Assembly (NCBI GenBank): GCA_038214335.1
Contig: JBBQRY010000001.1
Location: 1-30,694, forward strand
From: Chthoniobacterales bacterium
GTDB lineage: Bacteria; Verrucomicrobiota; Verrucomicrobiia; Chthoniobacterales; Terrimicrobiaceae
Direction: 5' to 3'
DNA length: 30,694 nucleotides
A program made the translations under genes and the position numbers. Below, one piece after another: positions 4,366 to 28,058 of this stretch. The first letter of the stretch is position 1. Every line of letters begins with the position of its first letter. Below the pieces are notes generated by a model. The model ran no database searches. It was not told the origin of the DNA and was given only the letters and a program-made list of their open reading frames with translations.

Positions 4366-4461
4366 CTAGGAAACCGTGGAGGCATGCCGGGTCCGCCACC
4401 TGATGAGCCCCAGCACCATCAACGAACTGGCCAGCAATCCCCATGTGGACGGCTCGGGGAC
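4366..4461 (-). other. PEP-CTERM protein-sorting signal (exosortase substrate)
   Basis: VPEPS, then a hydrophobic helix, then basic RWRTRH at the extreme C-terminus. Confidence 0.92.
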
Positions 4462-7400
4462 GGCTGAGTAATTGAGGAGGAGATCATTGCCTCCGACACT
4501 CATGCTGAACGTGCCGGAATACGGATTACTGAATCCTGCCGTGCCGTTGTTTGCTGCCACATGAATGGCAAAGTTTCCTGCAGAAAACCCGGTAATCCCG
4601 CCGGTTGTGGCTACGAGCGTCCAAGAATAGCTGTTGGCGTCGTCGAAGTTGAGCGCGTCGCCGTTGCTGTCCGGTCCGACCGCCGAGAGGCTCCAGAGGT
4701 TGATGGAGAATCCACCGGTTGTCAGGCTGGCCAGGTCAAGGCTGCCGGTGAGGGAAATTGTGTCGTAACCTGTGCCAGCGGCTGCCGTGGCATCATTCAA
4801 CTGCCAATTGAACCCTCCCCCACCCTGCCACACCTGCGAGCCCGTGGAAAGCGTCCCGGGACTGTTTCCGGGAGAGAGCGTGCCGGCAACGGTCACCAGT
4901 CCATCCGCCGTGCCCGAACCAGCAAGCGTTCCTCCGGCGCTGACCATCACGCTATTTCCGGACGCCAGAGAGCCGTCGAGGACAAGGGTTCCCGAAGAGA
5001 TCGTGGTTGTTCCCACGAACGTGTTGGCGCCAGTCAGCGTCAGCGTGCCAGCGCCTGTCTTGACGAGTGCTCCGGTCGTGGTGCCCTCTGCTGAGATCAC
5101 GCCGCTGACGGTGGTGGCATGGTCGCCGGTGAAGGTGAGCGTGCGGGTGGTGGCCGTGCCAAAGCTCACCGGACCGGAAATCACGAGGTTTGCAGAGGCG
5201 GCATCGACCGAGGCATCGCCTGAGAGTGCCAGCCCGCTCGCAATTGTCTGTGTCAGTGCCGATTCGTTACGGATTGTGCCATAGGTTGTGATCGTGTTGT
5301 TGCTGAGGATCAGGGCCTCAGAGCCCGATTGGAAGGTGATATCACCCGCGAGCCGGTCGGTCTGCGTGTCAACGCTTGCCGCATTGGAAGATGTGAACGA
5401 CACCGCCGAGCCACCTGCCGCAGTGGTTCCGACCGCCCAGTTGGAGTTATCTCCCCATTGCCCGTTGCCAGCTACGTTGTTCCAGACGGCGGCTGAGGAG
5501 GATGCCAGAAACATGAGGTTCTGCGCAGTGGGGTATGAGAACGTGCCAGAGAGACCGGAGATGTTGGATTTGAACGTGAGCTGGTCAGCCGGAACGCCAC
5601 CGCCAATACCGCCGCCTGAGGAGGTTACCAGCGTGTAGTTTCCCGAGATGGAGAATCCCTTATCATTAAAATAAAAGGAGATGCCAGTGCCCAAGCTAGG
5701 CGCATTGGCCGTTATGATCCGGTCCGATGCGGTGGCTGCGCCGAGGTCCATCAGCAGTGTGGCGTTGCCGCTGGTGATCAGATTGCTCACGTTCACCGTC
5801 TCAATATTGTTCGCATTGCCCGGGCTGTAGGTGGGGGTTGCGCTGCCGCCGGTCAGGGGGCCGAGGTTGACCAGTGTGGCGGCCATGCTTCCCGAGGCAA
5901 ACGTCCCGCTGGAGATATTAACTTGCGCGACATCCGTGACGGCTCCGGCGGCGTAGATGGTGCCCGGCCCCTGGATGATGAGGTTGTTGCCCGCTCCGGC
6001 GAGAGCGCCTGTGAGAGAAAGCGTTGCACTATTGGACGCCAACGTGGTCTGTGAGGTGAGGGTGATCCCACCTCCGTATGTATTATTGCCGGAAACGTTT
6101 TGGAGTGCCCCGCCGGCATTATAGCCAACCCCGCCGACGCTGAGGTTTCCCGTCGCGATGTTGATGTCACCCTGGAACTGGAGTCCGCCGTTGGCGCTGA
6201 CCGTGGTATTCCCCGAGCCGAGAGCGGTATTGCTGGCGACCGTTAGAAACGTGCTGCTTCCGATGCTCGTATCTCCGCTGTAGGTGTTGTTGCCCGAGAG
6301 CTGGAGCCCCCCGGAGGCCGTTGTGGCAATGCCTCCGGTCCCGGTGATGTTACCCGATAAAACGATCGGCGCTGAACTGCTGGACGAGGTGAGAGTGTTG
6401 CTGCCGAGATCCACGGCTCCTGAGAGGATCAGTTGGCCGGTGGAGGAATTGATGAGAGAATTTCCAGCGAGAGTGACATCGCCAGCAATCGTCAGTGCGT
6501 TGCTCGCATTGTTGTTGATCGCACCCTGGTTCTTGGCGCTGACGACAACGCCTGTTCCGTCGAGGGAGATTGATGCGAAGGGCACGGCCTGGGCGGCTTT
6601 GCTCTGGATGCCGAGCTGAAGGGTGCCGCCCGAGGCGACAGTGAGCGCGGATGCGCTGCCCAGAGAGTTTGTGCCGAGAGCGTTGAGGATACCCCCTTGG
6701 ATGGTGGTCGCGCCGGTGTAGCTGCTGCCATTCCCGCTGAGATTGAGAGTTCCCAGTCCGGTTTTTACGAGACCACCCGAGCCGGTCAGATCGCCGGTGA
6801 GGGAAGTCGTCGCCAGGGCATTTGCACTCCCGATCGTCAGTGTGTGGGTTCCGACGCTCACGGCTTTCGACAGGGTCAGGTTCGTGGCTGCAGCACCCTG
6901 GATCGAGGCATCACCGGCAAGCGTGACGGTGCCGTCCCAGGTGGCGATGTTCGAGGCCAGGAGGAGTGCCCCGCTGCCCGCGACACCGGTGCCGCTCAGC
7001 GTCAGGGACTCTCCAGTCACCGTGAAGTTGCCGGTGGCATTGATCGCGAGCGAACCGTTGTTCATCACGGTCGTGCCGCTGGTTGTACCACCAAGGACGG
7101 AAACGCTGTCCATGAACAATGTTCCCTCATTGATCGTCGTTTCGCCGAGATAGGTATTGGCGACGGTTGTTGCCTGCTTAAGGGTTAGGTTTCCTGCGCC
7201 ATTTTTTGTGAGGCCGCCGGGGCCTACGATCACGCCGTTGATCGTGACATTATTTCCATTGGTATCGATGATGCCCGTCGAGTCCATAATCAGATACCGG
7301 TACTGGGAGGAGGCAATATCCCCGGAGGCCTGGAGGGTGCCGCCGCCAAAAATGAGGGAATTCGGGCCCTGATTGCCCGGGCCGACGGGACCTGCGCCAC

Positions 7401-10400
7401 TGCCGAGCGCATCGCCGGAATTTGCCGAGACAACGCCGTCATTGATGGTCAGCGTGCCGTTGAACGTATTGTTTCCGGTGAGCGCAAGCGTTCCGGCGCC
7501 GGTTTTTAGCAGGCTGCCGCCGAAGGCCGGACCGTCAGCGATCACGCCGGTGACGGATGTGTTCTCCGATCCCGAGAAGGTGAGGGTTCCGGGCAGAGCG
7601 CCATTGTTGCTGAGAGCGATGCCGCCGCCGACGGCGAGGCTTCCGGTATTGGCAGAGAGCGTGCGGTCGGAGTTCAGCGCGATGGCACTGTTGATCGTCT
7701 GGGTATTCGACGAGTTGTTTGCCAGGTTGCCACCGAGGACGATCGTGTTGCCGCTGATGGTGAACGCGGACGCTCCCGCAGCAAAATTGATGGCCCCGGT
7801 CGTCTGGTTCCCGCCGGTGGCAATATTGGTCTGGCTTGAGCCGGCAAACGTGAGGTCGGCTCCGGTTGCGGGGACGTTGCCGCCCTGCCAGTTGCCGGCA
7901 GTGGTCCAGTTTCCATCGCCCCCCGAACCATTCCAGGTGCCGGTGACACCGGCCTGCGCGGTGAAGGTCAGGTTTCCGCCCGAAACGCTGAATGTTCCCG
8001 TGAGCCCGGCAATGTCAATCGAGGCAAACGTGAAAGGCGGGCTGGAAGGATTGAGCGGGGCATTCCACTGCACTCCGGAAATCAACGTAAAGCTGCCCGG
8101 GCCAGCAGTGAAGCCAGCCCCTTTGAAGAGGAACGTCGTGGAGTTCCCCAGATCGACGATGCTGCCGACCTGAATTTTGTCTGAAGTATTCGCCGCGCCG
8201 AGGTCCATCAGAAACGAACCGGTGGAAGTGCCGCTCGACGCGATGAGCTGGGAAACAGAAATCGTATCGATGGTTCCGGAACCGCCGGGGCTGAGCGCGC
8301 CGCCATTGATCGAGACCGTGGCATTCATACTCGCCGATTCCAAAACGCCCCCGTTGACGGCAACCGTGCCGGTATTGGTGTTGTTCCCGAGAAGCGCCAG
8401 CGTGCCAGAACCGACTTTGGTGAGGGTCAAATCCCCCGAGACCGGGCCTGAAACGCTCATCTCTTTCGCTGCGGCGTTGTTGCCGATGTCGAAGGTCGCG
8501 CTCGTGGTGAGCGCGAGACCGCTGCTGATGGTTGCTGCGGAATTTCCAGTTCCGGTAAAGAGAATGGTGCTGCCACTTGCGATGGAGAGCGTGCCGTCGC
8601 CGGTAATGCTGCCGCCGCTCATCGTCAGGTTTCCGGAGGAGGCATTGAAGGTCTGCAGGTCGAGCTGTCCGTCGGTGCCGATCGTGATGCTGGTTCCGGG
8701 AATCTGGTTATCGGCGAGAAGGCGAACAACCGCGCTGTTGGCTAAACCGGTGTTGTCACCGATCACAAGGTTTCCGCCGTAGGCGGCACCGGATGTCTTG
8801 CCGAGAGCGAGAACACCGTCGTTGACCGTCGTCAGCCCAGTGTAGGTATTGGCGGAATTTCCGCTGAACGTCATCGTCCCGGTGCCGGCTTTTGTGAACG
8901 AGCTGACGGCGATGGATTCACCGATCGCTCCGGAAAAACCGACATCCACGGAATTTGTGAGGGTGAAATCCTTGAACATCACCGTGCCGCTGCCTTGGGG
9001 GATATTGCTGCCGGTGAGGGTTACCGGCCCGCTGAACATAAATCCATTTGTGCCGCTGAAGGTCGTATTTCCAGCGATCACAAGCGTATTGGCCAGCGTG
9101 CGATTACCGCCGGATGCCTGGAGGATGGCGTCGAGCGCACCCGCCTTCCCGAGAGCCAGGGTTCCTGTGCCTGCGACCTGGTCGCTTCCGAGGACGAGGG
9201 TGCCCGCCTGATGCTCAAGTCCGCCGGTGAACGTGTTGTTGCCGTTGAGCGTGAGGGTGCCGGACCCTTTTTTCATCAAGGAACCGCCAGCTCCGGTGTT
9301 GTTGCCGTCCGCGATGATCCCGCTGACGGTGGAGTTTTGGGTTCCGGAGAAGGTGAGGCTATTCGGAGTCGCTGAGTTTTTGAGCGCGATCGCTCCTCCG
9401 AACATGAGATCGCCAAAGGCAGCGGTCACCGTGCTGTTCGAGCCGAGGGTGAGGTTGGTGTTGATCGTCTGGGTTTTACTCGACGAGTTCACGATATCGC
9501 CGGTGAGGGTGATCGTATTGTTGGCAATCGTAAAAGTGCCGGCCGCATAGTTGAAGGCGATGCCCGCCACGCTCCGGTCGCTGCCGGTATCGACAGTGAC
9601 CGTCTGGGTGTGGTCTCCGACAAACTGGACCGAGGCGTTTCCGGCCGGGACCGCGTTTCCGATCCAGTTCCCTGCGGTTCCCCACTGCCCGTCGGTGGCA
9701 CTGCCATTCCAGATCGCGGTCGGGAGGGCTGCTGTGCCGTCCGGGTTGATTGTCAGCAATACCTGGGTGTTGGCTGTGAGGGGATCGGCCGTGTTATAGT
9801 AAAGCAGGTTGTTGCCGAGGCGGTCCTGCAGGGGAAATCCGTAGCCGGTGGTCAGCGGGTTCTTTCCGCCGGTGAGACTTGCCGCATAGCCATTGTAAAA
9901 GAGCGGGTTGGATTGAACGTCCGAAAAGTAGATTTGCTGACCGGCAGGCGTGTTGACAAAGAGGATCTGCTCACCTTCCGGAGTCCCGTTTGCGATCGTT
10001 GTCCCATTGACGTTGGAGGCCCCGCTTGCCCACCACTGGGCGCTCGCCAACTCACCGATGGCTGTGCCGTTGAAGAGGGTGGTGCTACCGACGTATCCGA
10101 AGCTCAGCCCCGCATAGAGGTCGCCGACAACCTGCCCCCACACGTCGTTGCTGATTCCCACCTGATCATGGCTATAGCCGGGAGAGGTGATCGTGTAATC
10201 GCCATTATTTCCGTAAATGCCGTCCTGCGAGTTGAGGGAGGCGTAGGGGATGTAGATCGTGGCCGTGGAGCCCACGCCCGATGCCGTCGAACTGCCCAGC
10301 CAAGCGACATCCGCATTGCCGGAGAGGGGACCTGCCGTAAGGGTGATTCCCCCGGTGGCCAGGTCACCCGAGAAAGTGCCCGTGAAGTCATAGGTCTGTC

Positions 10401-11415
10401 CTTGAGTTGAGATATTCCCCGTGGGTTGAGTTCCTGTGCCCACATACGTGCCAGCGAGGTGGACGGTCGCATTTTTTGTCGTCAGGTCGGTCAAATAAGC
10501 CGTGAAATCGTGGTAAACACCATCGGCGCTGAATTGCGGGCTGATGACTCTTGCAAATTCCGAATTTGGCAGAGTGGGCGATGCGCCGCCCGGAATGATC
10601 GCTGCGGGGTTGGCGTCGGGATTCGGAATCGTGGGGTTCGGGGGGGTCGCGGGAGCGACCGTGTTGGTCCCCGACTGGGCATAAGCGGCGTTGACGAGAA
10701 GCTGCGTGTTCGCCGAGATCTGGGTGTGATTCTGAACATTGGTGTTCACCGTTCCATTGGCGATATGCTGGGCAGTCATGGAGAGCGAAATGGCTGTGAA
10801 GTCGATGTAGGACAAGTCGGTATAAACTGCGGTGCCGGTGCCCTGCGGAACAATCGTCTGCTCAAAATACTGGTAGCGGGTGGAGTAGTTGGGGTCGGCA
10901 GGGGTCTGGGCGGCAGGCGTATAGCCGGGCTCCATGCCCTGAAGGCCGTAAGGTCCGAAATTTACGAAGATTCTGCCTCCGCTGAATTCGCTCACATTCA
11001 CCCGCGAGATTCCGTCTGCACCCGTGAGTTGATCGAGGGAGTAGGCCGTATTGGCCATCAATTGCTGGTTGTCGCCAAAAACATTGCTGTATGTCCCGGT
11101 GACCGTCGATGTCGCGTTAAGGAACTGAATAAAGATCTGGCTCGAACTTATCCCGGTATCATTCTTGAAGACGTAGGGAACCGCATCTGCGGCTTCCGCT
11201 GTTGCCGGTGAACCACCCCAGGCAGCCAAGATGAAAAGCGCACAGGCCATGCCGGAAAGCGGCTTCGCGATGGATCGAAACACGCCATCCGATGGCGAAA
11301 CGGTCGATGCGCCGGGTGAAATCCGTATGGATTTTGCTCCCGCAAAGAATTTCGCAGCAAAATGTTGATGCTTTGTTCCAAAAGTGAAATCGCATTTATC
11401 TCGGAGATTTTTCAT
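4366..11415 (-). CDS. 2349-aa secreted protein: GH64-like beta-1,3-glucanase domain + autotransporter-associated passenger (beta-strand) repeats + PEP-CTERM sorting signal
   Basis: Signal-like segment ending ATAEA. Many L.K.G.GTL.L.G.NTY/F.G.T.I..GTL repeats. C-terminal VPEPSTWGLLASSLMVLGLIRWRTR. No beta-barrel. Confidence 0.9.
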   Translation of the reverse strand: MKNLRDKCDFTFGTKHQHFAAKFFAGAKSIRISPGASTVSPSDGVFRSIAKPLSGMACALFILAAWGGSPATAEAADAVPYVFKNDTGISSSQIFIQFLNATSTVTGTYSNVFGDNQQLMANTAYSLDQLTGADGISRVNVSEFSGGRIFVNFGPYGLQGMEPGYTPAAQTPADPNYSTRYQYFEQTIVPQGTGTAVYTDLSYIDFTAISLSMTAQHIANGTVNTNVQNHTQISANTQLLVNAAYAQSGTNTVAPATPPNPTIPNPDANPAAIIPGGASPTLPNSEFARVISPQFSADGVYHDFTAYLTDLTTKNATVHLAGTYVGTGTQPTGNISTQGQTYDFTGTFSGDLATGGITLTAGPLSGNADVAWLGSSTASGVGSTATIYIPYASLNSQDGIYGNNGDYTITSPGYSHDQVGISNDVWGQVVGDLYAGLSFGYVGSTTLFNGTAIGELASAQWWASGASNVNGTTIANGTPEGEQILFVNTPAGQQIYFSDVQSNPLFYNGYAASLTGGKNPLTTGYGFPLQDRLGNNLLYYNTADPLTANTQVLLTINPDGTAALPTAIWNGSATDGQWGTAGNWIGNAVPAGNASVQFVGDHTQTVTVDTGSDRSVAGIAFNYAAGTFTIANNTITLTGDIVNSSSKTQTINTNLTLGSNSTVTAAFGDLMFGGAIALKNSATPNSLTFSGTQNSTVSGIIADGNNTGAGGSLMKKGSGTLTLNGNNTFTGGLEHQAGTLVLGSDQVAGTGTLALGKAGALDAILQASGGNRTLANTLVIAGNTTFSGTNGFMFSGPVTLTGSNIPQGSGTVMFKDFTLTNSVDVGFSGAIGESIAVSSFTKAGTGTMTFSGNSANTYTGLTTVNDGVLALGKTSGAAYGGNLVIGDNTGLANSAVVRLLADNQIPGTSITIGTDGQLDLQTFNASSGNLTMSGGSITGDGTLSIASGSTILFTGTGNSAATISSGLALTTSATFDIGNNAAAKEMSVSGPVSGDLTLTKVGSGTLALLGNNTNTGTVAVNGGVLESASMNATVSINGGALSPGGSGTIDTISVSQLIASSGTSTGSFLMDLGAANTSDKIQVGSIVDLGNSTTFLFKGAGFTAGPGSFTLISGVQWNAPLNPSSPPFTFASIDIAGLTGTFSVSGGNLTFTAQAGVTGTWNGSGGDGNWTTAGNWQGGNVPATGADLTFAGSSQTNIATGGNQTTGAINFAAGASAFTISGNTIVLGGNLANNSSNTQTINSAIALNSDRTLSANTGSLAVGGGIALSNNGALPGTLTFSGSENTSVTGVIADGPAFGGSLLKTGAGTLALTGNNTFNGTLTINDGVVSANSGDALGSGAGPVGPGNQGPNSLIFGGGTLQASGDIASSQYRYLIMDSTGIIDTNGNNVTINGVIVGPGGLTKNGAGNLTLKQATTVANTYLGETTINEGTLFMDSVSVLGGTTSGTTVMNNGSLAINATGNFTVTGESLTLSGTGVAGSGALLLASNIATWDGTVTLAGDASIQGAAATNLTLSKAVSVGTHTLTIGSANALATTSLTGDLTGSGGLVKTGLGTLNLSGNGSSYTGATTIQGGILNALGTNSLGSASALTVASGGTLQLGIQSKAAQAVPFASISLDGTGVVVSAKNQGAINNNASNALTIAGDVTLAGNSLINSSTGQLILSGAVDLGSNTLTSSSSSAPIVLSGNITGTGGIATTASGGLQLSGNNTYSGDTSIGSSTFLTVASNTALGSGNTTVSANGGLQFQGDINIATGNLSVGGVGYNAGGALQNVSGNNTYGGGITLTSQTTLASNSATLSLTGALAGAGNNLIIQGPGTIYAAGAVTDVAQVNISSGTFASGSMAATLVNLGPLTGGSATPTYSPGNANNIETVNVSNLITSGNATLLMDLGAATASDRIITANAPSLGTGISFYFNDKGFSISGNYTLVTSSGGGIGGGVPADQLTFKSNISGLSGTFSYPTAQNLMFLASSSAAVWNNVAGNGQWGDNSNWAVGTTAAGGSAVSFTSSNAASVDTQTDRLAGDITFQSGSEALILSNNTITTYGTIRNESALTQTIASGLALSGDASVDAASANLVISGPVSFGTATTRTLTFTGDHATTVSGVISAEGTTTGALVKTGAGTLTLTGANTFVGTTTISSGTLVLDGSLASGNSVMVSAGGTLAGSGTADGLVTVAGTLSPGNSPGTLSTGSQVWQGGGGFNWQLNDATAAAGTGYDTISLTGSLDLASLTTGGFSINLWSLSAVGPDSNGDALNFDDANSYSWTLVATTGGITGFSAGNFAIHVAANNGTAGFSNPYSGTFSMSVGGNDLLLNYSAVPEPSTWGLLASSLMVLGLIRWRTRHASTVS
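9740..11184 (-). other. GH64-like (laminaripentaose-producing beta-1,3-glucanase) domain
   Basis: Motifs in GH64 order: FSGGRIFVNFG; PAAQTPADPNY..YQYFEQT (Glu185); YTDLSYIDF (Asp205); RVISP; NDVWGQVVGDLYAG; YNGYA...YGFPLQD; LLTINPD. Confidence 0.72.
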
Positions 11416-11908: not shown

Positions 11909-12156
11909 TCGTCAGCCTCCTCATGACTGTTGAATCGAAAGACCCCCTTGGGAATTCGCACTCCATGTCCCAGAGCTTTCTGCCACTCTTTCGCGCCGGC
12001 CTTGCTGCTGGAAGAAATGTCGAGTCCCCTGCCGGATGTTTCCATAATTCTGTTGGAAGCCTCGTCAAGGCGCATTCCGTAACGCAAGCCCTCTTGGATC
12101 CTGCGACGCCCCACGGTTCTGCCGATGGTTTCCTCCATGTTGACGGGTATTTCCAT
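11872..12156 (-). CDS. Small hypothetical protein, putative partner (antitoxin-like) of the nucleotidyltransferase
   Basis: 94 aa, ending IPKGVFRFNSHEEADEW. Its 3' end overlaps the nucleotidyltransferase start by 37 nt. Confidence 0.62.
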   Translation of the reverse strand: MEIPVNMEETIGRTVGRRRIQEGLRYGMRLDEASNRIMETSGRGLDISSSSKAGAKEWQKALGHGVRIPKGVFRFNSHEEADEWLWKMITRKTD

Positions 12157-12593
12157 GCCGGAAGAGTATCACCTTGCTGCAGGAAACTCAATTCGTTTCG
12201 GACTTACGCTGCGAATCGGAACTTCTCACCGGTGCCATGAGCCCGAGCGTCCGCGCGATCCCTGCCATGAGCCGGAACCCTCGCCCCAGTTGGCCGATCC
12301 GCCGCGCCAGCCTTCAGCATTGCCACTTCCGTGGTTCCAGTTGGCGGGGAACTCGGGGTACCAGTGTGCAATTTCTCACTCATCCGCTCCTGTGCCTGTC
12401 GGTTCATCTTCAGGCATGGATATTCTTCAATCTTGATAGTTAATCACCTCCGCACGGGTGTTGATGGACAACGTATCAACGCCCGAGTGGCGTTTCCATT
12501 CCTCCAGTGTTCTGCGCACCACGGAGAGAAATGTTCTTCCCAACGGGTTTTCCTTGATGGACAGGGGGACGTGTCTGCTAGAGTCATTGCCTT

Positions 12594-14291
12594 ATGAGTT
12601 CTAAGTCTTCCGGGCGCCTGCGTCCGCATTCCTCTCTTGTTCTGGATGGTCTGAGCCGCGCGGCAAGCCGTGCGATGCTGTATCCGGTTGGGTATAAAGA
12701 AAGCGATTTTGCGAAGCCCCAAATTGGCGTGGCTTCGACGTGGAGCATGGTCACGCCCTGCAACATGCACATCGACCAACTGGCGCGGGAATCCGCGCTG
12801 GGGATAGATGCCGCAGGTGGCAAGGCCACGATCTTCAACACGATCACGATTTCGGATGGCATTTCGATGGGCACCGAGGGGATGAAATATTCTTTGGTTT
12901 CGCGCGAGGTTATTGCGGATTCCATCGAAACCGTGGTGGGGTGTCAGGGATTTGACGGGTTTGTGGCGATTGGCGGATGTGACAAAAACATGCCGGGCTG
13001 CATGATGGCGATTGCGCGGATGAACCGGGCGGCGGTTTTTGTTTACGGCGGAACGATCCTGCCGGGATGTCTTGCTGGGAAAAATCTGGATATCGTCTCG
13101 GTTTTCGAAGCAGTTGGCCAACGGGCGGCAGACAAAATTTCTGACAAGGATCTCCACGATGTCGAGGCCTGCGCGATCCCGGGTGCGGGGTCTTGCGGTG
13201 GTATGTATACGGCGAATACGATGGCTTCGGCGATTGAGGCGCTCGGATTCAGCCTTCCGAACAGTTCGGCTCAGGCGGCCATTTCTGCGCACAAATCGAA
13301 GGACTGCCGGGATGCTGGAGCAGCGGTCATCGCGATGCTCAAGAAAGGGATTGTTCCTTCGGATATCTTTTCCAAAGAGGCTTTTGAGAATGCGATCACG
13401 GTGGCGATTGCGCTGGGCGGATCGACGAACTCGGTACTGCACCTGCTGGCGATGGCGCACTCGGCGAACGTGAAGCTGACGATTGATGACTTCACTCGCA
13501 TCGGCAAGCGCGTGCCCGTGCTGGCGGATCTCAAACCCAGCGGACGGTATCTGATGTCCGAGCTGGTGGAGATTGGCGGCATTGTTCCGATGATGAAAGA
13601 TCTGCTCGGCGCCGGCCTGCTCCACGGCGGTTGCCTCACGGTCACGGGCAAGACGCTCAAGCAAAATCTCGCGGCCTTCAAACCCTATCCGAAGGGTCAA
13701 AAAATTATTGCCCCGCTGAGCGCTCCGCTCAAAAAAGAGAGCCACCTCGTCATCCTTCGCGGCAACATCGCCCCGGATGGGGCCGTCGCAAAAATCTCTG
13801 GCAAAGAAGGTGAGAAATTTTCCGGCACGGCGCGCGTTTTTGAATCCGAGGAGAAAGCACTCGATGCGATCCTTGCAGGCAAAATCCGCAAAGGCGACGT
13901 GATCGTCATTCGCTACGAGGGGCCGCGCGGCGGACCCGGGATGCGCGAAATGCTGTCGCCGACCAGTGCCGTGATGGGCTGCGGGCTTGGCAAAGATGTT
14001 GCGCTGATCACCGACGGACGTTTCTCTGGTGGCACCCATGGGTTCGTGGTCGGCCACATCACGCCCGAGGCGTTTGAGGGAGGTCCGCTGGCGATCATTC
14101 GCAGTGGCGACCCGATCACGATCGACGCGACCACCCGCCAACTCACGCTGGGCGTTCCCGCGAAGGAAATTGCCGCACGCCTCACCAAATGGAAAAAGCC
14201 GAAACCGCGCTACCGCCGCGGCGTGCTGGCCAAATATGCCGCGCATGTCTCGACCGCCAGCCAAGGCGCAGTGACGGACGCCGGATTCTAA
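12594..14291 (+). CDS. ilvD: Dihydroxy-acid dehydratase
   Basis: [41 protein letters not shown]; 565 aa. Confidence 0.97.
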
Positions 14292-14294
14292 CCT

Positions 14295-17200
14295 ATGAAC
14301 GAGCGCACCGCCAACCCGATGCAGGCCGCGGTGTTTCTCCGCGACCACCACTCTCCCGCGAAGCACCACACCCAGGTCTCGATCAGCTTTGGCGAGCGCA
14401 CCGACCCTGCCGTGCTCCGTCAAGCATGGGAGGCGGTCTGTGATACCCATGTCATCCTCCGATCCACATTTTCCCGCTCGACCATCGGAGATGTCACAGT
14501 CTCCGAAGCCCCGGAGACCAAAACCACATGGGGGCAGGTCGATTGGACGGCCATCGATTCGGAAGTCCTGTCCGAGAAATGGGAGGAATTCCAAAATGCC
14601 GACCTGACCCTCCCGATGGATGGGTCATCGCGGATCACAGAAATCCTCCTGCCAGGCGGTGGCTCGCACTACCTGCTCACGCTCGCATCTTATCTGCTCG
14701 ATGAGGCTTCGATTGGACGCGTTTTGTTGGATTGGCTGGTCGCGCTCGAACGCGCCCCCGCGCAGCCCGCCGAGCAACCAGCCCCGCTCACGACCACTGC
14801 GGCATGGAGCGAAATTCTCAAATCTGCCGAAGCGCCGCTGGCTGTGCATGCCCGTCCGATTGAGGACCAGTCTGTCGCGACGGCCTCTCTCACACTCGGA
14901 CGCGAGCAATCCGCCGCGTTCCTCGACGCCTGCAAGGAGAAATCCCTCGACCCGCGCGCCGTCGTTCACAGCCTCTGGGCACTCATGCTCCGCCGCCTTG
15001 GAGCCACCGGAAATGTGACGCTCGGACAATTCAATGCCCGCCGGAGTTCGGACGCTATCGGATATTTCGAGAACTGGCTGCCAGTCTGTCATGAATGGGC
15101 CTCAAAGGATTGGATGCGCGATCTTCAGCGTGCGTATGGAGCGATTTCCGAAAACGCATGGATTTCGACATCCTCCGCCGTCACCGCTGCTCCCAAGCAA
15201 CTGGTGGGCGATCCGCTCTGCGTTGCGTTCTCATGGAGGGGTCCCGAAGCCCGCGAAGTCATCCAAAGCACGTTCCCGCGATGGATCAATTTCGATGCCC
15301 GCATCCGCCTCCCGCGTCCGGATTACCAATTGCTCGAGGTGCGCGCCGCCTCCCAGATTTCCCTCACCCTGCACGGCCTGCCGGGGAACGATGCCTTTGC
15401 CAACGATTTGCTCAAGCGGATCACGAGTCTCATGGAGGCACTCGATTCGATGGACAACAAACCGGCAGCCCAGGTTCCACTTCTGCTGCCGGACGAGATC
15501 CGCACGCTGAAAGAATGGTCGCGCGGTCCTGAAGGCGTGGAGCGTCCTGCCAATACGCTGGCCGCATTCCGCAAAGTCCTGGAAAAATCTCCAGACGCCA
15601 TTGCGGTGCGTGATGGGGATTACGAACTCACGTATGCCGAGCTCGACTCGCTTTCGGATCGCCTCGCGGCGCACTTTGCGCAGGCATCACTCGTCGGCGG
15701 ATGGCATGTTGCCCTCTTCCTTTCGCCTTCCTCGTGGATCGCGATTGCCCTGCTCGCCGCATGGAAAGCCGGGGATATCTGCCTGGCCCTTGATCCCGGA
15801 GCACCCCCGGAATGGATCGAGTCCATGCTCACCTCGCAGGATGTGGGGGTTGTCCTCTGCGATGCCGCCAGCGCCCCGCTTCTCGATGCCTCCTCGCGCC
15901 GGCGCATTGTTCTCGACCAAGAATGGGACGGGCTCGAAACCGCCGACCTGCCCAAAGCCGATCTCAAACCCGAGTCGCCTGCCGCGATCCTGCCCGGCCA
16001 CTCGGATGGTCCGCCGCCGCAGATCCGTGCTCTCACTCAGGAAATGCTCGTTGCCGCGGCGCTCGAGGGCGCACGTGTGCTGGATTTCGGTGCCGGCGAT
16101 TCGTTTCTTGCGCATTCCGCCCCCGGAGGCGGTGCCTTTTTTGACGAATGGCTCCTGCCGCTTCTTGCGGGCGGCACCGTTCAGATCGCCGAAGACGATC
16201 TGCTGGATCCCGTATCCGGCAACACAACTCACCTTCGCCTCACCGCTCCAGAATGGAACAACCAAGCCGCCCGCTGGGCCCGCGCTGGAGAGCAGATTGC
16301 GTCCGCTCCACGCGTTGTCGCTGTCGAATCCGGCTCCAACTCGACAAGTGCCCTCGAAGCATGGGACCACGGCACCGATAGCCAATCCCGCATCATCACG
16401 TTTTTCAGTCCCGCAGGGGTTTGCGGTTTGGGACTCGCCGCTCCCGCCTCGCCCGAGGGGGCATTTCTCATGATCGGACGTCCCACACCCGAGGTCGAAG
16501 CCTTCATCTGCGATGGCGACTCTCAGAATGTGCCGCCCGGATTCACCGGCGAGCTTTGGATCAAATTTCCCGGCTGGAAAAAATCCACCGAACTCCGCGG
16601 ACGCCGCGGCATTCGCACCGGACTCCGTGCATGGAGGAACCGGCAGGGCCTGATCCAGGTCGAAGGTCCGCTGAACCGTTTCACCGATCCCTCCCCCGCT
16701 GCCACCCGCCTGCGCACACTTCCCGAAGTCGTGGATTGTCTGCTCGGGGAACAGGCATGGACGTTGGAAAGCGGACAAGCTGATGGCAAATGGGCCGTGA
16801 CAGAATGGCCGCTGGATCGCGGTGGTTGGATCGACGTGCCCTCGCTTCCGCGTCCCGAACTCGCCGTGCCCACGTCACAACCTGCCCGTGCCGTAGCCGC
16901 TGTGACCGCCGTGCCAGCACCTAAGCCCACCACCCCATGGTCACCAGTCTCCGTGCTCCAGCAGAATGGGTCCACTCCCCCGCTGGTTCTTGTCCCCACA
17001 ACATCCGGCGTGCCCGAAGTCTATCAGGATTTCGTATCCGACCTCGGTGACTCGCGCCGCATCCTAGGTCTCACCGCCCGCGGAGCCCACGACCCCGATG
17101 CCTCCCACACCACCATCGAAAATGCCGCTGCCGCATGGATTGAGGCCCTCACCGAAGAAGACCCTACCATCGCATTTGACCTTTGCGGATTCGGATTCGG

Positions 17201-17609
17201 AGGCATCGCCGCCCTCGAAATGGCCCGCCAATTGGGCGCTGCCAAACGTCGCGTGCCAGGCCTCATCCTCATTGGGTCGCTTCCACCGGAGTCTGAACAA
17301 CCTGCCGGCTGGCTGGCCTCCATGAAAAAATCCGTCTTTAAGCGTCTTGCCGCCGAAGAGCGCGTCGAGCCATGGCCCGCTGCTGGCGAACCCGCCCGCT
17401 CGCACGAAGCCGCATGGAAACGCTACCGACTCACTCCCTGCAACATTCCTGCCCGGATTATTGTCCCGTCAGATTTTCCGCCCGACGCCGCTGCGAACTG
17501 GCTCAGCCTCCTCCCGTCTGCCCGCATCGAACCCGTCAAATGCACCTGGTCCGAAATGCTCTCCTTCCCCGCCGTCAAACGCCTCGCCTCCATCCTCGCT
17601 TCGTCGTAA
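14295..17609 (+). CDS. NRPS-like C-A-TE protein lacking a carrier domain and with degenerate catalytic motifs
   Basis: C-fold (LRQAWEAVCDTHVILRSTF; IGYFENWLPV), A-fold (LTYAEL; WKAGDICLALDP; TGELWI), TE-fold (TIENAAAAWIEAL; LCGFGFGGIAALEMARQL). Intact 1104-aa ORF starting 3 bp after the ilvD stop. Confidence 0.85.
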   Translation: MNERTANPMQAAVFLRDHHSPAKHHTQVSISFGERTDPAVLRQAWEAVCDTHVILRSTFSRSTIGDVTVSEAPETKTTWGQVDWTAIDSEVLSEKWEEFQNADLTLPMDGSSRITEILLPGGGSHYLLTLASYLLDEASIGRVLLDWLVALERAPAQPAEQPAPLTTTAAWSEILKSAEAPLAVHARPIEDQSVATASLTLGREQSAAFLDACKEKSLDPRAVVHSLWALMLRRLGATGNVTLGQFNARRSSDAIGYFENWLPVCHEWASKDWMRDLQRAYGAISENAWISTSSAVTAAPKQLVGDPLCVAFSWRGPEAREVIQSTFPRWINFDARIRLPRPDYQLLEVRAASQISLTLHGLPGNDAFANDLLKRITSLMEALDSMDNKPAAQVPLLLPDEIRTLKEWSRGPEGVERPANTLAAFRKVLEKSPDAIAVRDGDYELTYAELDSLSDRLAAHFAQASLVGGWHVALFLSPSSWIAIALLAAWKAGDICLALDPGAPPEWIESMLTSQDVGVVLCDAASAPLLDASSRRRIVLDQEWDGLETADLPKADLKPESPAAILPGHSDGPPPQIRALTQEMLVAAALEGARVLDFGAGDSFLAHSAPGGGAFFDEWLLPLLAGGTVQIAEDDLLDPVSGNTTHLRLTAPEWNNQAARWARAGEQIASAPRVVAVESGSNSTSALEAWDHGTDSQSRIITFFSPAGVCGLGLAAPASPEGAFLMIGRPTPEVEAFICDGDSQNVPPGFTGELWIKFPGWKKSTELRGRRGIRTGLRAWRNRQGLIQVEGPLNRFTDPSPAATRLRTLPEVVDCLLGEQAWTLESGQADGKWAVTEWPLDRGGWIDVPSLPRPELAVPTSQPARAVAAVTAVPAPKPTTPWSPVSVLQQNGSTPPLVLVPTTSGVPEVYQDFVSDLGDSRRILGLTARGAHDPDASHTTIENAAAAWIEALTEEDPTIAFDLCGFGFGGIAALEMARQLGAAKRRVPGLILIGSLPPESEQPAGWLASMKKSVFKRLAAEERVEPWPAAGEPARSHEAAWKRYRLTPCNIPARIIVPSDFPPDAAANWLSLLPSARIEPVKCTWSEMLSFPAVKRLASILASS

Positions 17610-19430: not shown

Positions 19431-19991
19431 ATGAAATATCTCCTATGCCTCATGGCACTTGTCGTCTCCGCTATGGCCTCTGAAGAAAAAGCCGTTCTCG
19501 GCGGAGGATGTTTCTGGTGCATCGAAGCCGTCTATCACGGTCAGCCCGGCATCGGGACCGTCGTCAGCGGCTATGCGGGGGGGAGCATTCCGAACCCGAC
19601 TTACGAGCGGGTCTGCACCGGAAAAACCGGCCACGCGGAAGTGGTCGAAATTACGTTTGATCCTGCGGTGACAACCTACGAAAAGGTTCTCGATTTGTTC
19701 TGGGACGCCCACGATCCCACGACCCTGAACCGTCAGGGCGCGGACGCCGGCACCCAATACCGCTCGATCATCGTCGCACAAAACCCGGCCCAACGTGCGG
19801 CCGCCGAAAAATCCAAAGCCGAGGCACAGTCTCGATTCCGCTCCCCGATTGTCACGGAAATCGTGACCGATGCGCCCTTCTATGCCGCCGAGGAACACCA
19901 TCAGGATTTCTACGAGCGCAATCCTAACCAGCCCTACTCCCGCGCTGTCATCGCCCCCAAACTCGATAAGTTGCGAACAGGCAAGCACTAG
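19431..19991 (+). CDS. msrA: Peptide-methionine (S)-S-oxide reductase with signal peptide
   Basis: GGGCFWC active site, GYAGG, TGHAEVV, HDPTTLNRQGADAGTQYRS, FYAAEEHHQDFY. Hydrophobic N-terminus MKYLLCLMALVVSAMA. Confidence 0.95.
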   Translation: MKYLLCLMALVVSAMASEEKAVLGGGCFWCIEAVYHGQPGIGTVVSGYAGGSIPNPTYERVCTGKTGHAEVVEITFDPAVTTYEKVLDLFWDAHDPTTLNRQGADAGTQYRSIIVAQNPAQRAAAEKSKAEAQSRFRSPIVTEIVTDAPFYAAEEHHQDFYERNPNQPYSRAVIAPKLDKLRTGKH

Positions 19992-19997
19992 GATTCC

Positions 19998-20300
19998 CTA
20001 CTGCCAGTGGGCCGGGATCCAGACGCGTTGGCCGTTCGAGGTGCCCCATGTGCCATCAACCCAGACGGATTGGGGGCTGGGAGGGAGGCCGCGTTGTGGC
20101 GTGGCAGAGGAAGGACCAGCTTCAAGGAAGTCTGAGTCGTTGCTTCGTCCAGCGGTGGCTGGATGCGGCCCGCGATCGAGCCATTCAAAGAGGGCGTAGC
20201 CGATGGGATCAGGTGGACGCAGGCGGCCTTCCGCATTGCGGCAACCGATGAGGGAACTGCACAGGAGAAGCCCACTGCCGATCAGAAAGGTGTGACGCAT
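19998..20300 (-). CDS. Small lipoprotein with C-terminal YXWGXW-like motif
   Basis: Lipobox LIGC after a hydrophobic stretch; tail SVWVDGTWGTSNGQRVWIPAHWQ. Confidence 0.72.
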   Translation of the reverse strand: MRHTFLIGSGLLLCSSLIGCRNAEGRLRPPDPIGYALFEWLDRGPHPATAGRSNDSDFLEAGPSSATPQRGLPPSPQSVWVDGTWGTSNGQRVWIPAHWQ

Positions 20301-20327
20301 GGAGATCAGTATCTCCCGGTCTGGGAA

Positions 20328-21569
20328 TTATTTCCACTGAAGATTTGCGAGGCGCAGGGCAACTTCCTCGACATTGGCGCGACTGTTGAACGCCGAAATG
20401 CGGAAATACCCTTCGCCTGCGGGCCCGAATCCGCTGCCTGGAGTTACGACCACATTTGCCTGCGAAAGCACTCTGTCAAAAATCTCCCAACTCGTGAGCC
20501 CATGCGGTCCGCGCACCCAGATATACGGCGCATTCTGACCCCCGAACGTCTCGAGTCCGCATCCTTTTGCCGCTTCAACAAGGATCCGGGCATTTCCCAT
20601 ATAATGCTCGATGAGCGCCGCGACCTCGCGCTGGCCTTCCCCGGAATAAAGCGCCGCCGCTGCCCGCTGGGTGACATAGCCGACCCCATTGAACTTTGTG
20701 CTAAAGCGCCGGTTCCAAAGCGGGTGGAGCGGATGCTTTGCGCCCGCAGATGTCGTGCAGTGGAGGGCTTTCGGAACCACGGTAAAGGCGCAACGCACAC
20801 CAGTGAATCCCCCGTTTTTCGAGAAGCTGCGAAACTCGATCGCGCACGTGTTAGCACCGGGGATTTCGTAAATCGAATGCGGGATCCCGGGATCTTGAAT
20901 GTAGGCTTCGTAGGCGGCATCAAAGAGGATGACCGCCTCATGGGCGCGGGCGTAGTCCACCCACGCCGCAAGTTGCTCGCGGGTGGCCGTGGCACCGGTC
21001 GGATTATTCGGATAGCAGAGGTAAATCAGATCCACCTTTTCGCTCGGCACCGCTGGGACGAATCCGTTTCCCGCCGTGCATGGCAGGTAAACCAGTCCGC
21101 CGTAGAGCCCGCAAGCATCGCCTTCGGCGGTGTGGCCGGCCATGACATTCGTATCGACATAGACCGGGTAAACCGGATCCATCACGGCGATCCGGTTGTC
21201 GTGCCCGAAAATATCCAAAATATTCCCGCAGTCGCACTTCGAGCCGTCGGAGACAAAAATCTCATCGTTGGCCACTTCGATGCCACGCTCGCGGTAATCG
21301 TTTGCGGCAATCGCCTCGCGGAGAAATTCATAGCCCTGCTCCGGACCGTAACCTTTGAAGGTTTCGCGCCCGCCCATTTCATCGACGGCTGCATGCATGG
21401 CCTCGCGCACAGCCTCGGGCAGCGGTTCGGTCACGTCTCCAATTCCACAGCGAATCAACCGCGCGGCAGCATCCGGACTAGCATCCGTGAAAGCCTTAAC
21501 CCTACGGTTGATTTCCGGGAACAAATACCCGGCCTTGAGTTTGAGATAATTGGAATTGAGACGCGCCAT
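20328..21569 (-). CDS. dapL: LL-diaminopimelate aminotransferase
   Basis: [48 protein letters not shown]-lysine [30 protein letters not shown]. Confidence 0.96.
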
Positions 21570-21628
21570 AGGAAAGCCGGTCACCGTGCCATACGCGCTC
21601 AGACCTGAAAAGCAAAATTATAAGTTAT

Positions 21629-23525: not shown

Positions 23526-24365
23526 TCATTTATTGTCCCAAAGGCTGCGCAGGACGGACCACCAGACGAAGGCGCGGCTTGCCTTTGGAGCGCGGGCCTG
23601 CGGGTTGGCCGCGATGAGGTCAAGCGTGCGGCGGGCAAGGTGGAGCGGTAGCCGCACGGCAACGCGCACGCGGAGCCACCGCACCTGGTTGGCATAAAGT
23701 GCGCCGGCTTCAAGGGCGTGGCGTGCCCGAGCCATGGCATTCTCGAATTCGCATTCCCGCACATAAACCCGGCCCGCTGCGGCATCCGCATGGCGGTCGC
23801 GAAGGATATTCACCCATTGGAGCCCGCAGCCAAATTTCCAACCCAGCCGGCTGAGTTCCTCGGGGTTGCAGCGCGAATATCGAGGCAGATGTTTGAAACA
23901 AATCTCAGTCCAAAATTTTCCCACGCATCCTGCCACGAGTCCGGTGTAATGGGCGGCTTCGTCGATCGTGAGCGGCACCTCATTTTCCGCAAACCGCATC
24001 AAATCAAATTGCTGGCCTTCTAAGATCGTTCGCCAGACCGCACGGATTTCGGCAGAGTCCGGCGAGGATTCCAGCTCGGCGAGGAGATGCGGCAGGGCCT
24101 CAAGCAGATCGCGTTCGGCAGCGGGAAGACAACCCAGCGGGAGGACTTCTTCGGGTTCCCATCGGTCGGGCAGCCTCTCCAGCAATTCGCGCCGCACCGG
24201 GATCGGCACCTCGGAGGCGTCGGCGATGGAGTCCGATGCGCGTGCGAGCAGGTAAGCCAGGGCCAAGGTGCCGCGCACCTCCCGGGGCACAAGGCGCAAC
24301 GAAAGGAAAAATGACCGGGATACTCTGCGAAGGAGATCGTCCGCGTTCGGAAACGCACCATCCAT
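23526..24365 (-). CDS. Squalene/phytoene synthase family (head-to-head prenyltransferase)
   Basis: LLRRVSRSFFLSL, YLLARASDSIAD (DxxxD), YTGLVAGCVG, LQWVNILRD..AD. ATG 24365 chosen as start. Confidence 0.88.
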   Translation of the reverse strand: MDGAFPNADDLLRRVSRSFFLSLRLVPREVRGTLALAYLLARASDSIADASEVPIPVRRELLERLPDRWEPEEVLPLGCLPAAERDLLEALPHLLAELESSPDSAEIRAVWRTILEGQQFDLMRFAENEVPLTIDEAAHYTGLVAGCVGKFWTEICFKHLPRYSRCNPEELSRLGWKFGCGLQWVNILRDRHADAAAGRVYVRECEFENAMARARHALEAGALYANQVRWLRVRVAVRLPLHLARRTLDLIAANPQARAPKASRAFVWWSVLRSLWDNK

Positions 24366-24387
24366 GACAGGTCCGAATATCAAGAAT

Positions 24388-26484
24388 CTACCGGCGTCCT
24401 CCACCGCCCCGGAATCCGCCGCCACCCCCAAACGAGCGCTGCTGACCGACATTTCGCGAGAACCTCTGCGAGTCGAGGTCCGAGCGCATCGAGTCATTGA
24501 ACGCATTGCGATCCGGCTGAGCCCAGCCATCGCCTTTTTGTTGCTGCCAGCCGCCATCGGAGGCGGCCCGATACGCTTGGCCGTCCTTTCCGGCAAAGAC
24601 ATCGTTGTTGCCCAGCCGTGAGGCATCGTTCTGGAGCGTTTGCCGATCTACGGTCTGACGGTTTTCAGCGCGTGCGGGATCATTGGCCTGCGGGCGATCG
24701 TTTTTCCAGTTTTGGTAGTTCGGGTTCGACCGGATATTGTTGGCCGCATTGTTGACATCCGTGCGGGTGATGTGCGTGTTCTTTACGACGTTGTTGGACC
24801 AGTTGTTATAGACGTTGCGGGTGTTGATGTTCACGTTGTTCCAGTTCTTTTCCCATCCGCCATGCCATGGTCCCCACCATGGCGAACATCCCCAGGCGTG
24901 GTCGGCGACAAGGCCGAAGGCAAACCCGGTGGACAGCCCGCAGGCAAATCCCGCACCGAATCCATACGTCACGGGGGGGCCAATCCAAACATCGCCTCCA
25001 ATAAATGGCGGATACCAATATCCGGTTCCGAACACCACGACGCCCTCCGGAGCAAGGCATGGCCCAAAGTAGCCCGGGGTGTAACCCGTATAGACAACTT
25101 CCGGCGTTGAACCATACACAGAGACATTTGTCACATAGTAGATCGGGCAGCTCGGAGGAATCGCGTAAATCTCCGGAGGCACGGAATCCGCAACCGCCCA
25201 TGGCCCAGTGGGCGCGGCGGACTGAAACCAGACGCCCTTCACGATCGCATAGTAGGAATCCTCTGCCACCTTGATGACGGGCGTGGAGGTATTGATCGCA
25301 TAGCCAAGAGCGGTGCCGGCAATCGGCTGAAACTCGGGAGTTCCTACGAAATCCACGGTGGTTGAAGCCGTGCGTGAGATCGTTGCCGTCTGCGGAATCG
25401 TGGATGAGATGGCTGCCTCGTTGGCCTGCGGAGTTCCCGCCACGGACGCCAGCACGGTCCCCGCCGGATGGCTCTCCGGGATCATTGCAAAATCCGCCGG
25501 AAGCGCATTGGACGCCACAAACTGCCATGGTCCCGCGAGCGAAGGTCCTGTGAACCAGCGCCCGGAAAGCACGACATACCATGCCTGAGTTGGCACATAG
25601 ACGAAGATCGAGCCGGTGGAGTTCGTCACCTGCAAAAGCTGGGTGGGATCAATCGGAGCGAGCTGTGCAGGCCCCTCGGTCGTGACCAACTCCGCCGCTG
25701 CGGTGCTCACAAAAACCGTCGGCAGCGGTCCCGGTTCCGAACCCTTCGGCGGATCATAAAGCTGTGCGGTATCCGACACCCCAGCCAGCACGGTAGCCAG
25801 CGATGCGGGCGGAGTCTGCGCCGCCGTCCATGGCCCGTTCAACGCCGAAGCCTGCACCCAGCCGCCATTGATGCGCAGGAAATACAGTCCGCTGGTTGGG
25901 TCCATCAGGATGAGTGCTTGGGTATTGATCACGCGCAGCAAGGTGACACCATTCACCGCACGCAAGGCGGGTTCGCCATTCACCAGCACGAGCACGGCGG
26001 GGCCGTCGCTGGTGAAAATCGTGGGAACAGGATTCTGCACCGCGACGGTAGGTTGGCCTTCGGCGGTTGTGACGGCAAGGTTGGCTCGAATGGCCGGGAG
26101 CGAAAGGTTCTGCGCCCACGTGGAAGCTTGGGCGGTGACGAGGCCCGCATAATTGGTGGCCTGATCCGGAGCGGATGGAAAATTGATCTGTGCCGGCGTG
26201 AGATTCGACAACGACACAACCTGCTGCTCATTATCGACATCCGTCGTGCCCATGAGAACCATGGTCCCGAATTGCGGAGCCGCCGCCCCCTGTGGCGTCA
26301 CCGACACCGCCAGCCGAGCTGTCAACTGGTTGCCCGTCCAATCAGTCACCTGTGGCTGGTAAACCGAAAACGACGCCCCATTCGCAGTGAACGTCCTCGG
26401 CCACCCCGCGCCGGGGTCCGCAAACCCTTCCCCAGCAAAAAAACAAATACCCGCAACCGCAAACAACAGGCAGCACGTTTTCAT
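24388..26484 (-). CDS. Secreted 698-aa protein with three internal Y....G.W......GPW repeats and Asn-rich / Gly-Arg-rich tail
   Basis: Signal peptide MKTCCLLFAVAGICFFAGEGFA, then WPRTF...YQPQVTDW. Ends GGGGGFRGGGGRR. Confidence 0.82.
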   Translation of the reverse strand: MKTCCLLFAVAGICFFAGEGFADPGAGWPRTFTANGASFSVYQPQVTDWTGNQLTARLAVSVTPQGAAAPQFGTMVLMGTTDVDNEQQVVSLSNLTPAQINFPSAPDQATNYAGLVTAQASTWAQNLSLPAIRANLAVTTAEGQPTVAVQNPVPTIFTSDGPAVLVLVNGEPALRAVNGVTLLRVINTQALILMDPTSGLYFLRINGGWVQASALNGPWTAAQTPPASLATVLAGVSDTAQLYDPPKGSEPGPLPTVFVSTAAAELVTTEGPAQLAPIDPTQLLQVTNSTGSIFVYVPTQAWYVVLSGRWFTGPSLAGPWQFVASNALPADFAMIPESHPAGTVLASVAGTPQANEAAISSTIPQTATISRTASTTVDFVGTPEFQPIAGTALGYAINTSTPVIKVAEDSYYAIVKGVWFQSAAPTGPWAVADSVPPEIYAIPPSCPIYYVTNVSVYGSTPEVVYTGYTPGYFGPCLAPEGVVVFGTGYWYPPFIGGDVWIGPPVTYGFGAGFACGLSTGFAFGLVADHAWGCSPWWGPWHGGWEKNWNNVNINTRNVYNNWSNNVVKNTHITRTDVNNAANNIRSNPNYQNWKNDRPQANDPARAENRQTVDRQTLQNDASRLGNNDVFAGKDGQAYRAASDGGWQQQKGDGWAQPDRNAFNDSMRSDLDSQRFSRNVGQQRSFGGGGGFRGGGGRR

Positions 26485-26590
26485 AGAATTCAAACTAGCA
26501 TCAACATGCCGGTTAGCGAGGGAATAACGCGTTGGAACCGGCCTGCCGATCGTGGGCAAAACCTTGCATGGGGATGCCTGTTTCCTTCAT

Positions 26591-27710: not shown

Positions 27711-27755
27711 AAGGAGCTTACCCAAAAGTAAAACTGCTTTGGGGACGCTTTGTGG

Positions 27756-27781
27756 CGCAGTAGCCTCTCCCGCAGTAGCCT
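27756..27781. repeat. 11-bp direct repeat pair, arm-type-site-like, 3' of tRNA-Ser(CGA)
   Basis: CGCAGTAGCCT at 27756-27766 and 27771-27781. Confidence 0.55.
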
Positions 27782-27885
27782 AAAGGTACAATTCCAGGGA
27801 CAGATGCCAAAAAATTGCCGTTTTTCGACCAACCAAAAATCGAAAACCCTGGGTATATGCGGGTTTTGCGGGCGATTTTCGGTCA

Positions 27886-27977
27886 TGGCGGAAGGGGTGG
27901 GATTCGAACCCACGGTGCCTTTAACAGCACGCTCGATTTCGAGTCGAGTGCCTTCGACCGGACTCAGCCACCCTTCC
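27886..27977 (-). tRNA. tRNA-Ser(CGA)
   Basis: Minus strand GGAAGGGTGGCTGAG...CTCGA-CTCGAAA-TCGAG, long variable arm, GGTTCGAATCC, CCCTTCCG followed by encoded CCA. Confidence 0.97.
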
Positions 27978-28029
27978 TTTTCACTAGCAACGACTTACGA
28001 ATCGATAAAAAATCCGAACTTGATTTTTC

Positions 28030-28050
28030 TACGGTCGTTTTTTTACGGTC
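28030..28050. repeat. 7-bp direct repeat pair, arm-type-site-like, between tRNA and integrase
   Basis: TACGGTC at 28030-28036 and 28044-28050. Confidence 0.45.
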
Positions 28051-28058
28051 AATGCGTT

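Follow-up and report, generated by a model that had tools for sequence, protein, structure and literature searches.

Can a protein built like a module from the non-ribosomal peptide synthetases (NRPSs) be kept by selection when none of its domains retains the residues for catalysis? The question is raised by a gene of a Chthoniobacterales bacterium of the family Terrimicrobiaceae (assembly GCA_038214335.1, contig JBBQRY010000001.1, positions 1 to 30,694 of the forward strand). The window, meaning the whole stretch of 30,694 nucleotides (nt) analysed here, is contig C1 of a 2.29-Mb metagenome-assembled genome (MAG; G000) that is 83% complete. NRPS modules are textbook machines of secondary metabolism, and active assembly lines are known that contain a single degenerate domain. 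The open reading frame (ORF) at 14295-17609 (+), which we call the pseudo-NRPS, goes further: in an initial annotation from the sequence alone, it was described as an intact frame with condensation (C), adenylation (A) and thioesterase (TE) folds, all catalytically substituted and with no carrier domain (T), and it was proposed to be a repurposed NRPS scaffold rather than a gene in decay. The frame does translate through, giving 1104 residues (P0001) with no internal stop. Judged from sequence comparisons, the pseudo-NRPS is a derivative of one NRPS termination module (C-A-T-TE) that has lost the carrier and the canonical catalytic residues, and it is under purifying selection in all its domains.

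At the domain level, Pfam returned three matches, weak yet above threshold, in the order Condensation (PF00668, 34 bits for a cut-off of 30.6), AMP-binding (PF00501, 89 bits) and Thioesterase (PF00975, 56 bits). The same scan gave no PP-binding (PF00550) and no AMP-binding_C match, and the NCBIfam matches, to amino-acid adenylation and NRPS models, were all far below threshold. To place the motifs, we used profile-profile alignment (hhalign) against six real C-A-T-TE modules, with a probability of 100, together with a search of PDB sequences with the family profile. In the PDB search, the C-like domain and the A1-A2 region aligned to McyB, LgrA, SrfA-C and AB3403, the A-core to structures 8gic and 1amu, and the TE-like domain to the TE of AB3403, EntF and the fatty-acid synthase. 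Pfam, the profile alignments and the structural model together gave the arrangement of the ORF: a C-like domain (residues 1-400, 14295-15494, +) that aligns to the C domains of McyB and LgrA; an A-core-like domain (residues 420-790, 15552-16664, +) that keeps A1 and A2 and has A3, A5 and A7 substituted; a shortened A-subdomain (residues 791-855, 16665-16859, +), aligned to PLTxNGKxDRxALP; a Pro/Ala-rich linker at the site of the carrier domain (residues 856-884, 16860-16946, +); and a TE-like alpha/beta-hydrolase domain (residues 885-1104, 16947-17606, +). The condensation, adenylation (ANL superfamily) and thioesterase folds were all found, and none of the catalytic features tested was.

The substituted motifs named in the initial annotation were all present at the coordinates it gave, and both types of alignment supported their correspondence to the canonical ones. 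In the C-like domain, the C3 motif HHxxxDG, which holds the catalytic second His, reads ASYLLDE (residues 131-137, 14685-14705, +), and the family profile has xxFLLDE or xxYLLDE there. In the A-like part, the A1 motif is kept as LTYAEL (residues 445-450, +). The position of the A3 P-loop (YTSGSTGxPKG) is taken by AAILPGHSDGPPPQ (15981-16022, +); it reads PGHSDGPPP in the pseudo-NRPS and L-PGHxDGxPP in the family profile. The FD of A4 aligns with G612-G613, so that the Asp235 binding the alpha-amino group (GrsA numbering) corresponds to G613. The YGPTE of A5 reads FSPAG, the TGD of A7 reads TGL within IRTGLR (16611-16628, +), and A8 had no counterpart in the alignment to the six modules. For A10, PLxxNGKxDRxxLP corresponds to WPLTRGGWIDxxxLP in the family profile and to WPLDRGGWID (16806-16835, +), at the end of the A-subdomain, in the pseudo-NRPS; the GK position reads GW, with the Lys replaced by W845. 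In the TE-like domain, the nucleophile elbow reads GFGFGG (17187-17204, +), and the Ser, Asp and His of the triad align with G967, G994 and W1085, the last one within CTWSEML (residues 1083-1089).

The absence of a carrier domain, also claimed initially, rests on three analyses that agree. Besides the Pfam result, the GGhSL motif of real peptidyl carrier proteins (PCPs) aligns opposite a gap of the pseudo-NRPS family, and a custom hidden Markov model (HMM), derived from 40 real PCPs and applied with filters off, reached a best E of about 0.5 among the 83 family members defined below. One ortholog of another family of the order, f16 (L024:9979-13572, -, genome G039), carries some 80 inserted residues at the PCP site (residues ~860-950), with a PCP-like helix pattern and no Ser. 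This insert may be what is left of the lost carrier; we do not claim a vestigial carrier there, since the PCP HMM gave an E of only 0.9-11.

The fold was examined by structure prediction, a check already suggested with the initial annotation, and it appears intact. The AlphaFold2 model, made with the 83 family sequences, had a mean pLDDT (predicted local distance difference test) of 91.1 and a pTM (predicted template modelling) score of 0.76. Its sole stretch with pLDDT below 50, and the only disordered one, was residues 859-879 (21 residues), in the Pro/Ala linker at the carrier site. In Foldseek, the best whole-chain matches were SrfA-C (2vsq, E 6.5e-56), AB3403 (4zxh), ObiF1 (6n8e) and EntF (5ja1/5ja2), ranging to an E of about 4e-49. 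A confident model with termination modules as its nearest structures points to a C-A-TE module that is well folded and has no carrier.

Is this one odd gene or a family? A search of 5.8 billion proteins retrieved 72 relatives at 40-67% identity, 66 of them longer than 1000 residues. Those with a named source were all from Verrucomicrobia or Terrimicrobiaceae MAGs, and the next scores fell abruptly to real NRPSs (E 1e-19). The Verrucomicrobia and Terrimicrobiaceae entries, of the same length, belong to the same family and bear only the automatic name 'AMP-binding protein', and the ESM Atlas cluster (79 members) is labelled 'hypothetical protein'. Our family set comprised 83 full-length sequences, 67 close and 16 distant orthologs. 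The distant ones, from other families and at 16-31% identity, keep the length, the domain order and the absence of catalytic residues.

Across this set, the substitutions themselves are conserved. At the position of the TE nucleophile, 82 of the 83 sequences have Gly, the other has Asp and none has Ser; the A10 Lys is present in a single sequence of the 83, and W845 is Trp in 64 of the 67 close members. The position of the catalytic second His of the C domain is His in none of the 67 close members and in one of the 16 distant ones, and it varies across the family (S, A, P, G, E and others). Among 27 representatives at 40-67% identity, D136, F615, D617, E618, W619, G965, G967, G969, W1085, M1088 and L1089 are invariant or nearly so. 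The residues invariant over all 83 sequences lie mostly in the C-like domain (G33, W45, W79, W84, W96, L119, P328, W330 and D334), where H125 is His in 81/83 and D136 is Asp in 82/83. One lineage within f4 has an ilvD-adjacent copy (L032:1576-5097, -, genome G041) with HHSLFDE, the only canonical-looking HHxxxD among the 83; its A and TE parts are very diverged, and their detection by Pfam is marginal.

Selection was estimated as the ratio of non-synonymous to synonymous substitution rates (dN/dS; Nei-Gojobori) on unsaturated pairs with dS 0.4-1.5, and it was 0.10-0.18 overall. By domain, the ratio was 0.16-0.24 for C, 0.09-0.13 for the A-core and 0.07-0.14 for TE; it was below 0.25 in each domain save the A-subdomain and the linker, where it was higher. 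The initial annotation had named canonical motifs and a PCP in relatives, or a dN/dS near 1, as the marks of recent decay: none of the 83 orthologs has a PCP or the TE Ser, and the ratio is far from 1. Conserved substitutions, low dN/dS and an intact fold thus argue for a repurposed NRPS scaffold rather than a decaying one, in line with the original proposal.

How widely is the gene distributed, and how old is it? A full-length, single-copy ortholog was found in 16/16 genomes of the bacterium's own genus and in 23/24 of its own family. In an even sample of the order (121 genomes), it was present in 12/12 genomes of f1, 11/11 of f16, 4/4 of f9, 3/3 of f4, 2/2 of f10 and 1/2 of f2, that is, in 33 of the 34 sampled genomes of these six families. 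The remaining families of the order in this sample had no ortholog, just pieces of large multi-module NRPSs, and the 301 genomes of the phylum yielded nothing full-length beyond the order. Candidates from f8 (genome G081) were rejected as members, as they are real T-C-A-T NRPS modules. In a maximum-likelihood tree of IlvD, the product of the gene next to the pseudo-NRPS, a single branch, with support 93/96 and present in 92% of bootstrap trees, separates 20 gene-bearing from 7 gene-less genomes, so one gain suffices. As reconstructed from these sequences, the family has a single origin, in the ancestor that six families of a verrucomicrobial order share, and has been inherited vertically since. 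The locus was also present in DNA metagenomes from sediment, mat, freshwater and salt lake, and in none of the RNA runs.

The reduced genomes of family f9 indicate that the pseudo-NRPS does not depend on NRPS machinery. This family includes G032 (915,884 bp) and G047, each a single contig of about 0.92 Mb; the gene is intact in both, with 74% identity between them. Xiphinematobacter, a nematode endosymbiont, has a genome of 915,884 bp with 817 proteins (PMC4607532), and the comparison suggests that G032 is this organism. In the two genome papers on Xiphinematobacter, we found no mention of an NRPS-like or AMP-binding gene, or of ilvD. G032, G047 and G019 (100% complete) have one PP-binding match each, which is the fatty-acid acyl carrier protein (ACP), and in G032 and G047 the AMP-binding matches are the pseudo-NRPS gene itself only. 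Since the fatty-acid ACP is the only carrier in these three genomes, the pseudo-NRPS is not part of an NRPS line there. For the MAG of the window, real NRPS or polyketide synthase-type pieces with PP-binding domains were seen on other contigs (C173, C62 and C16; L002-L004), C173 having an 874-residue open frame of A-T-TE type; they are unrelated to the pseudo-NRPS.

The gene has one constant neighbour. Directly 5' of the pseudo-NRPS lies ilvD, for dihydroxy-acid dehydratase (12594-14291, +), identified by the equivalog TIGR00110 (745.6 bits, cut-off 618) and by Pfam ILVD_EDD_N and ILV_EDD_C. Its TAA stop (14289-14291) is followed by 'cct' and then by the ATG of the pseudo-NRPS. At all loci examined from f1, f2, f4, f10 and f16, ilvD is directly 5' and on the same strand. 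In the closer f1 loci, the gap is -1 (ATGA), 3, 4 or 11-13 nt; more distant loci have 18-78 nt, and one locus has 281 nt. The other neighbours of the pair all vary between loci, within one family too. In eight gene-less genomes, ilvD is followed by small unrelated ORFs, with no diverged copy downstream. We also considered whether the pseudo-NRPS substitutes for the regulatory small subunit of acetolactate synthase; this was excluded, because ilvN (TIGR00119) occurs alike in families that have the gene and in those that lack it.

What could such a protein do? The P-loop, the A10 Lys, the phosphopantetheine arm, the condensation His and the Ser nucleophile are all gone, and without them the cycle of adenylation, thioester formation, condensation and release could not run. 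The reading that we prefer, held with about as much belief as doubt, is that the protein has a binding or accessory role without catalysis, and that this role is tied to IlvD or to the metabolism of branched-chain amino acids. The pseudo-NRPS would then act by binding, as an accessory, scaffold or ligand-binding subunit, and its vestigial C-, A- and TE-like clefts would serve as surfaces for proteins or metabolites. From the gene spacing, it would be co-transcribed with ilvD and, in its own family, translationally coupled to it; on these grounds, the process served would most likely be IlvD function or branched-chain amino-acid or keto-acid metabolism. The link to IlvD is favoured by the persistence of the junction amid changing flanks and by the spacing in the own family, which is of the translational coupling type. 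The pseudo-NRPS of both ~0.92-Mb genomes is convergent with a Liv-type branched-chain amino-acid ATP-binding cassette transporter, which is a weak hint in the same direction.

A more specific version is tentative, and we consider it rather doubtful. A whole termination module would have been recruited to primary metabolism as an essential silent subunit. A branched-chain keto or amino acid, IlvD or both would bind in its empty A pocket and in the clefts of C and TE, and the subunit would in this way stabilise, assemble or control dihydroxy-acid dehydratase. This would explain both the translational coupling to ilvD and the retention in the 817-protein Xiphinematobacter, a proposed supplier of essential amino acids to its nematode host.

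Several points weigh against the reading that we prefer. In the four f9 genomes, ilvD and the pseudo-NRPS are far apart and both are kept. The IlvD alignment contained no column or indel separating gene-bearing from gene-less genomes, and so no sign of co-adaptation. The adjacency could be kept merely because the gene needs the ilvD promoter. Regulators are usually lost from reduced symbionts, and this speaks against a purely regulatory sensor. Moreover, the loss of canonical residues would not by itself prove the loss of all catalysis, and the binding partner or ligand that we propose is a putative one. When IlvD was modelled together with the C-like domain alone (residues 1-405), the predicted complex scored 0.00, a value that speaks neither for binding nor against it.

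Some of these points lead to other explanations. If the pseudo-NRPS were a non-catalytic scaffold or binding protein for another essential process, the adjacency to ilvD would reflect only the site of insertion and the dependence on a promoter. Such a role would fit the unlinked genes of 4/4 f9 genomes, in which the pseudo-NRPS is retained even at 0.92 Mb, the lack of co-adapted sites in IlvD, and the conserved f9 neighbour, which is an AhpC/TSA peroxiredoxin instead. It would leave unexplained why, in five families, the ilvD junction has outlasted a reshuffling of both outer flanks that is seen even inside a single family, and why, in the own family, the stop of ilvD overlaps the next start or is at most 13 nt from it; we regard this explanation as somewhat unlikely. 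That the protein is a cryptic enzyme seems to us unlikely too, at a slightly lower grade. It would have a non-canonical active site acting on a free, carrier-independent substrate, perhaps the product of the IlvD reaction, and the C-like domain would be its likeliest seat: most residues invariant over the 83 sequences lie in it, and H125 and D136, which are nearly invariant, together with E137 and PRWxxxD334 are deeply conserved. The HHSLFDE of the L032 lineage and the retention in an 817-protein symbiont, which fits an enzyme better than a regulator, point the same way. However, the canonical catalytic His position is variable across the family, H125 may be just a structural residue of the strand preceding the motif, and no lineage retains the A domain's ATP-binding motifs or any of the TE triad.

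A part played in trans in an NRPS pathway, with a free-standing carrier and active partner enzymes, could draw on the real NRPS pieces of the own genome, such as the A-T-TE frame of contig C173. We consider it very improbable, given that all catalytic residues are absent, that G019, G032 and G047 have no carrier beyond the fatty-acid ACP, and that G032 and G047 have no other AMP-binding gene. Finally, the dead motifs taken alone would suit an NRPS gene that was inactivated recently and is turning into a pseudogene. The data refute this and leave it next to no chance: 83 full-length orthologs, down to 16% identity, are free of frameshifts, dN/dS is low, the fold is confident and the replacement residues are themselves invariant.

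Some other genes around the pseudo-NRPS deserve a mention. In f9, the adjoining AhpC/TSA peroxiredoxin is intact in the free-living genomes (L029, L030) and is a degenerate AhpC/TSA-like ORF in the reduced symbiont genomes; there (in G032, L016:5835-8331 and 12135-12962), the Liv transporter, with one permease and two ATPases, lies on one side of the pseudo-NRPS and the degenerate ORF on the other. In the window, msrA, for peptide-methionine sulfoxide reductase, is found 1.8 kb downstream of the pseudo-NRPS (19431-19991, +). Together with the f9 peroxiredoxin, it may hint at a faint oxidative-stress theme, and this may be a coincidence. A gene of the squalene/phytoene-synthase family lies 6 kb downstream (23526-24626, -); in locus L019, it comes directly after the pseudo-NRPS, in convergent orientation, and in L017 and L024 it is found on that side too, no more than a few kb away. 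It may be a remnant of older synteny.

For the rest of the window, a long ORF of 2349 residues (4366-11415, -) had as its sole Pfam match seven PATR (passenger-associated transport) repeats near its C-terminus. The ORF at 20163-21608 (+), of 481 residues, had no Pfam or NCBIfam match; those at 24388-26559 (-), of 723 residues, and 27750-28637 (+), of 295 residues, had no match in NCBIfam, the sole library tried for them. These three ORFs are partly overlapped by long ORFs on the opposite strand.

How does the family compare with known systems? The closest are the NRPS termination modules SrfA-C (2vsq), AB3403 (4zxh) and EntF (5ja1/5t3d), which share its domain order and the folds of C, A-core, A-subdomain and TE. 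Identity to them is just 15-17%, yet the homology is clear by profile methods. In contrast to them, the pseudo-NRPS lacks the carrier, the C-domain His, the P-loop, the A7 Asp, A8, the A10 Lys and the Ser/Asp/His triad, and its gene is a core gene, single-copy and inherited vertically, that lies beside a primary-metabolism gene and outside biosynthetic clusters.

Binding by dead catalytic domains has known examples. The X-domain of glycopeptide-antibiotic NRPSs is a degenerate C-type domain with a mutated HHxxxDG that recruits cytochrome P450s. By analogy, this retention of a condensation fold for protein binding may be a precedent for the mode of action proposed here, although the X-domain sits in an active assembly line beside functional A, T and TE domains, whereas the pseudo-NRPS is silent throughout and stands alone. 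Dead alpha/beta-hydrolases work as receptors or co-activators in the gibberellin receptor GID1 and in ABHD5/CGI-58, where the nucleophile or the His is replaced. They could likewise be compared with the TE-like domain, since they retain the alpha/beta-hydrolase fold and work via ligand or protein binding; unlike these single-domain eukaryotic proteins, the pseudo-NRPS has its hydrolase fused to dead C and A domains. Our literature search found no paper describing the pseudo-NRPS family, and no account of a free-standing module with C, A and TE all silent, the carrier deleted and the behaviour of a core housekeeping gene.

For the biology of these bacteria, the family represents an NRPS-derived pseudo-enzyme with an unusual status, that of a core gene tied to primary metabolism, and pseudo-enzyme biology would gain a clear case from it. 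For genome mining, it would be a warning that 'AMP-binding' or 'NRPS-like' calls of this type are not biosynthetic. Moreover, it may reveal an accessory factor of branched-chain amino-acid synthesis, in an order abundant in soil and freshwater and in the symbiont of a crop pest.

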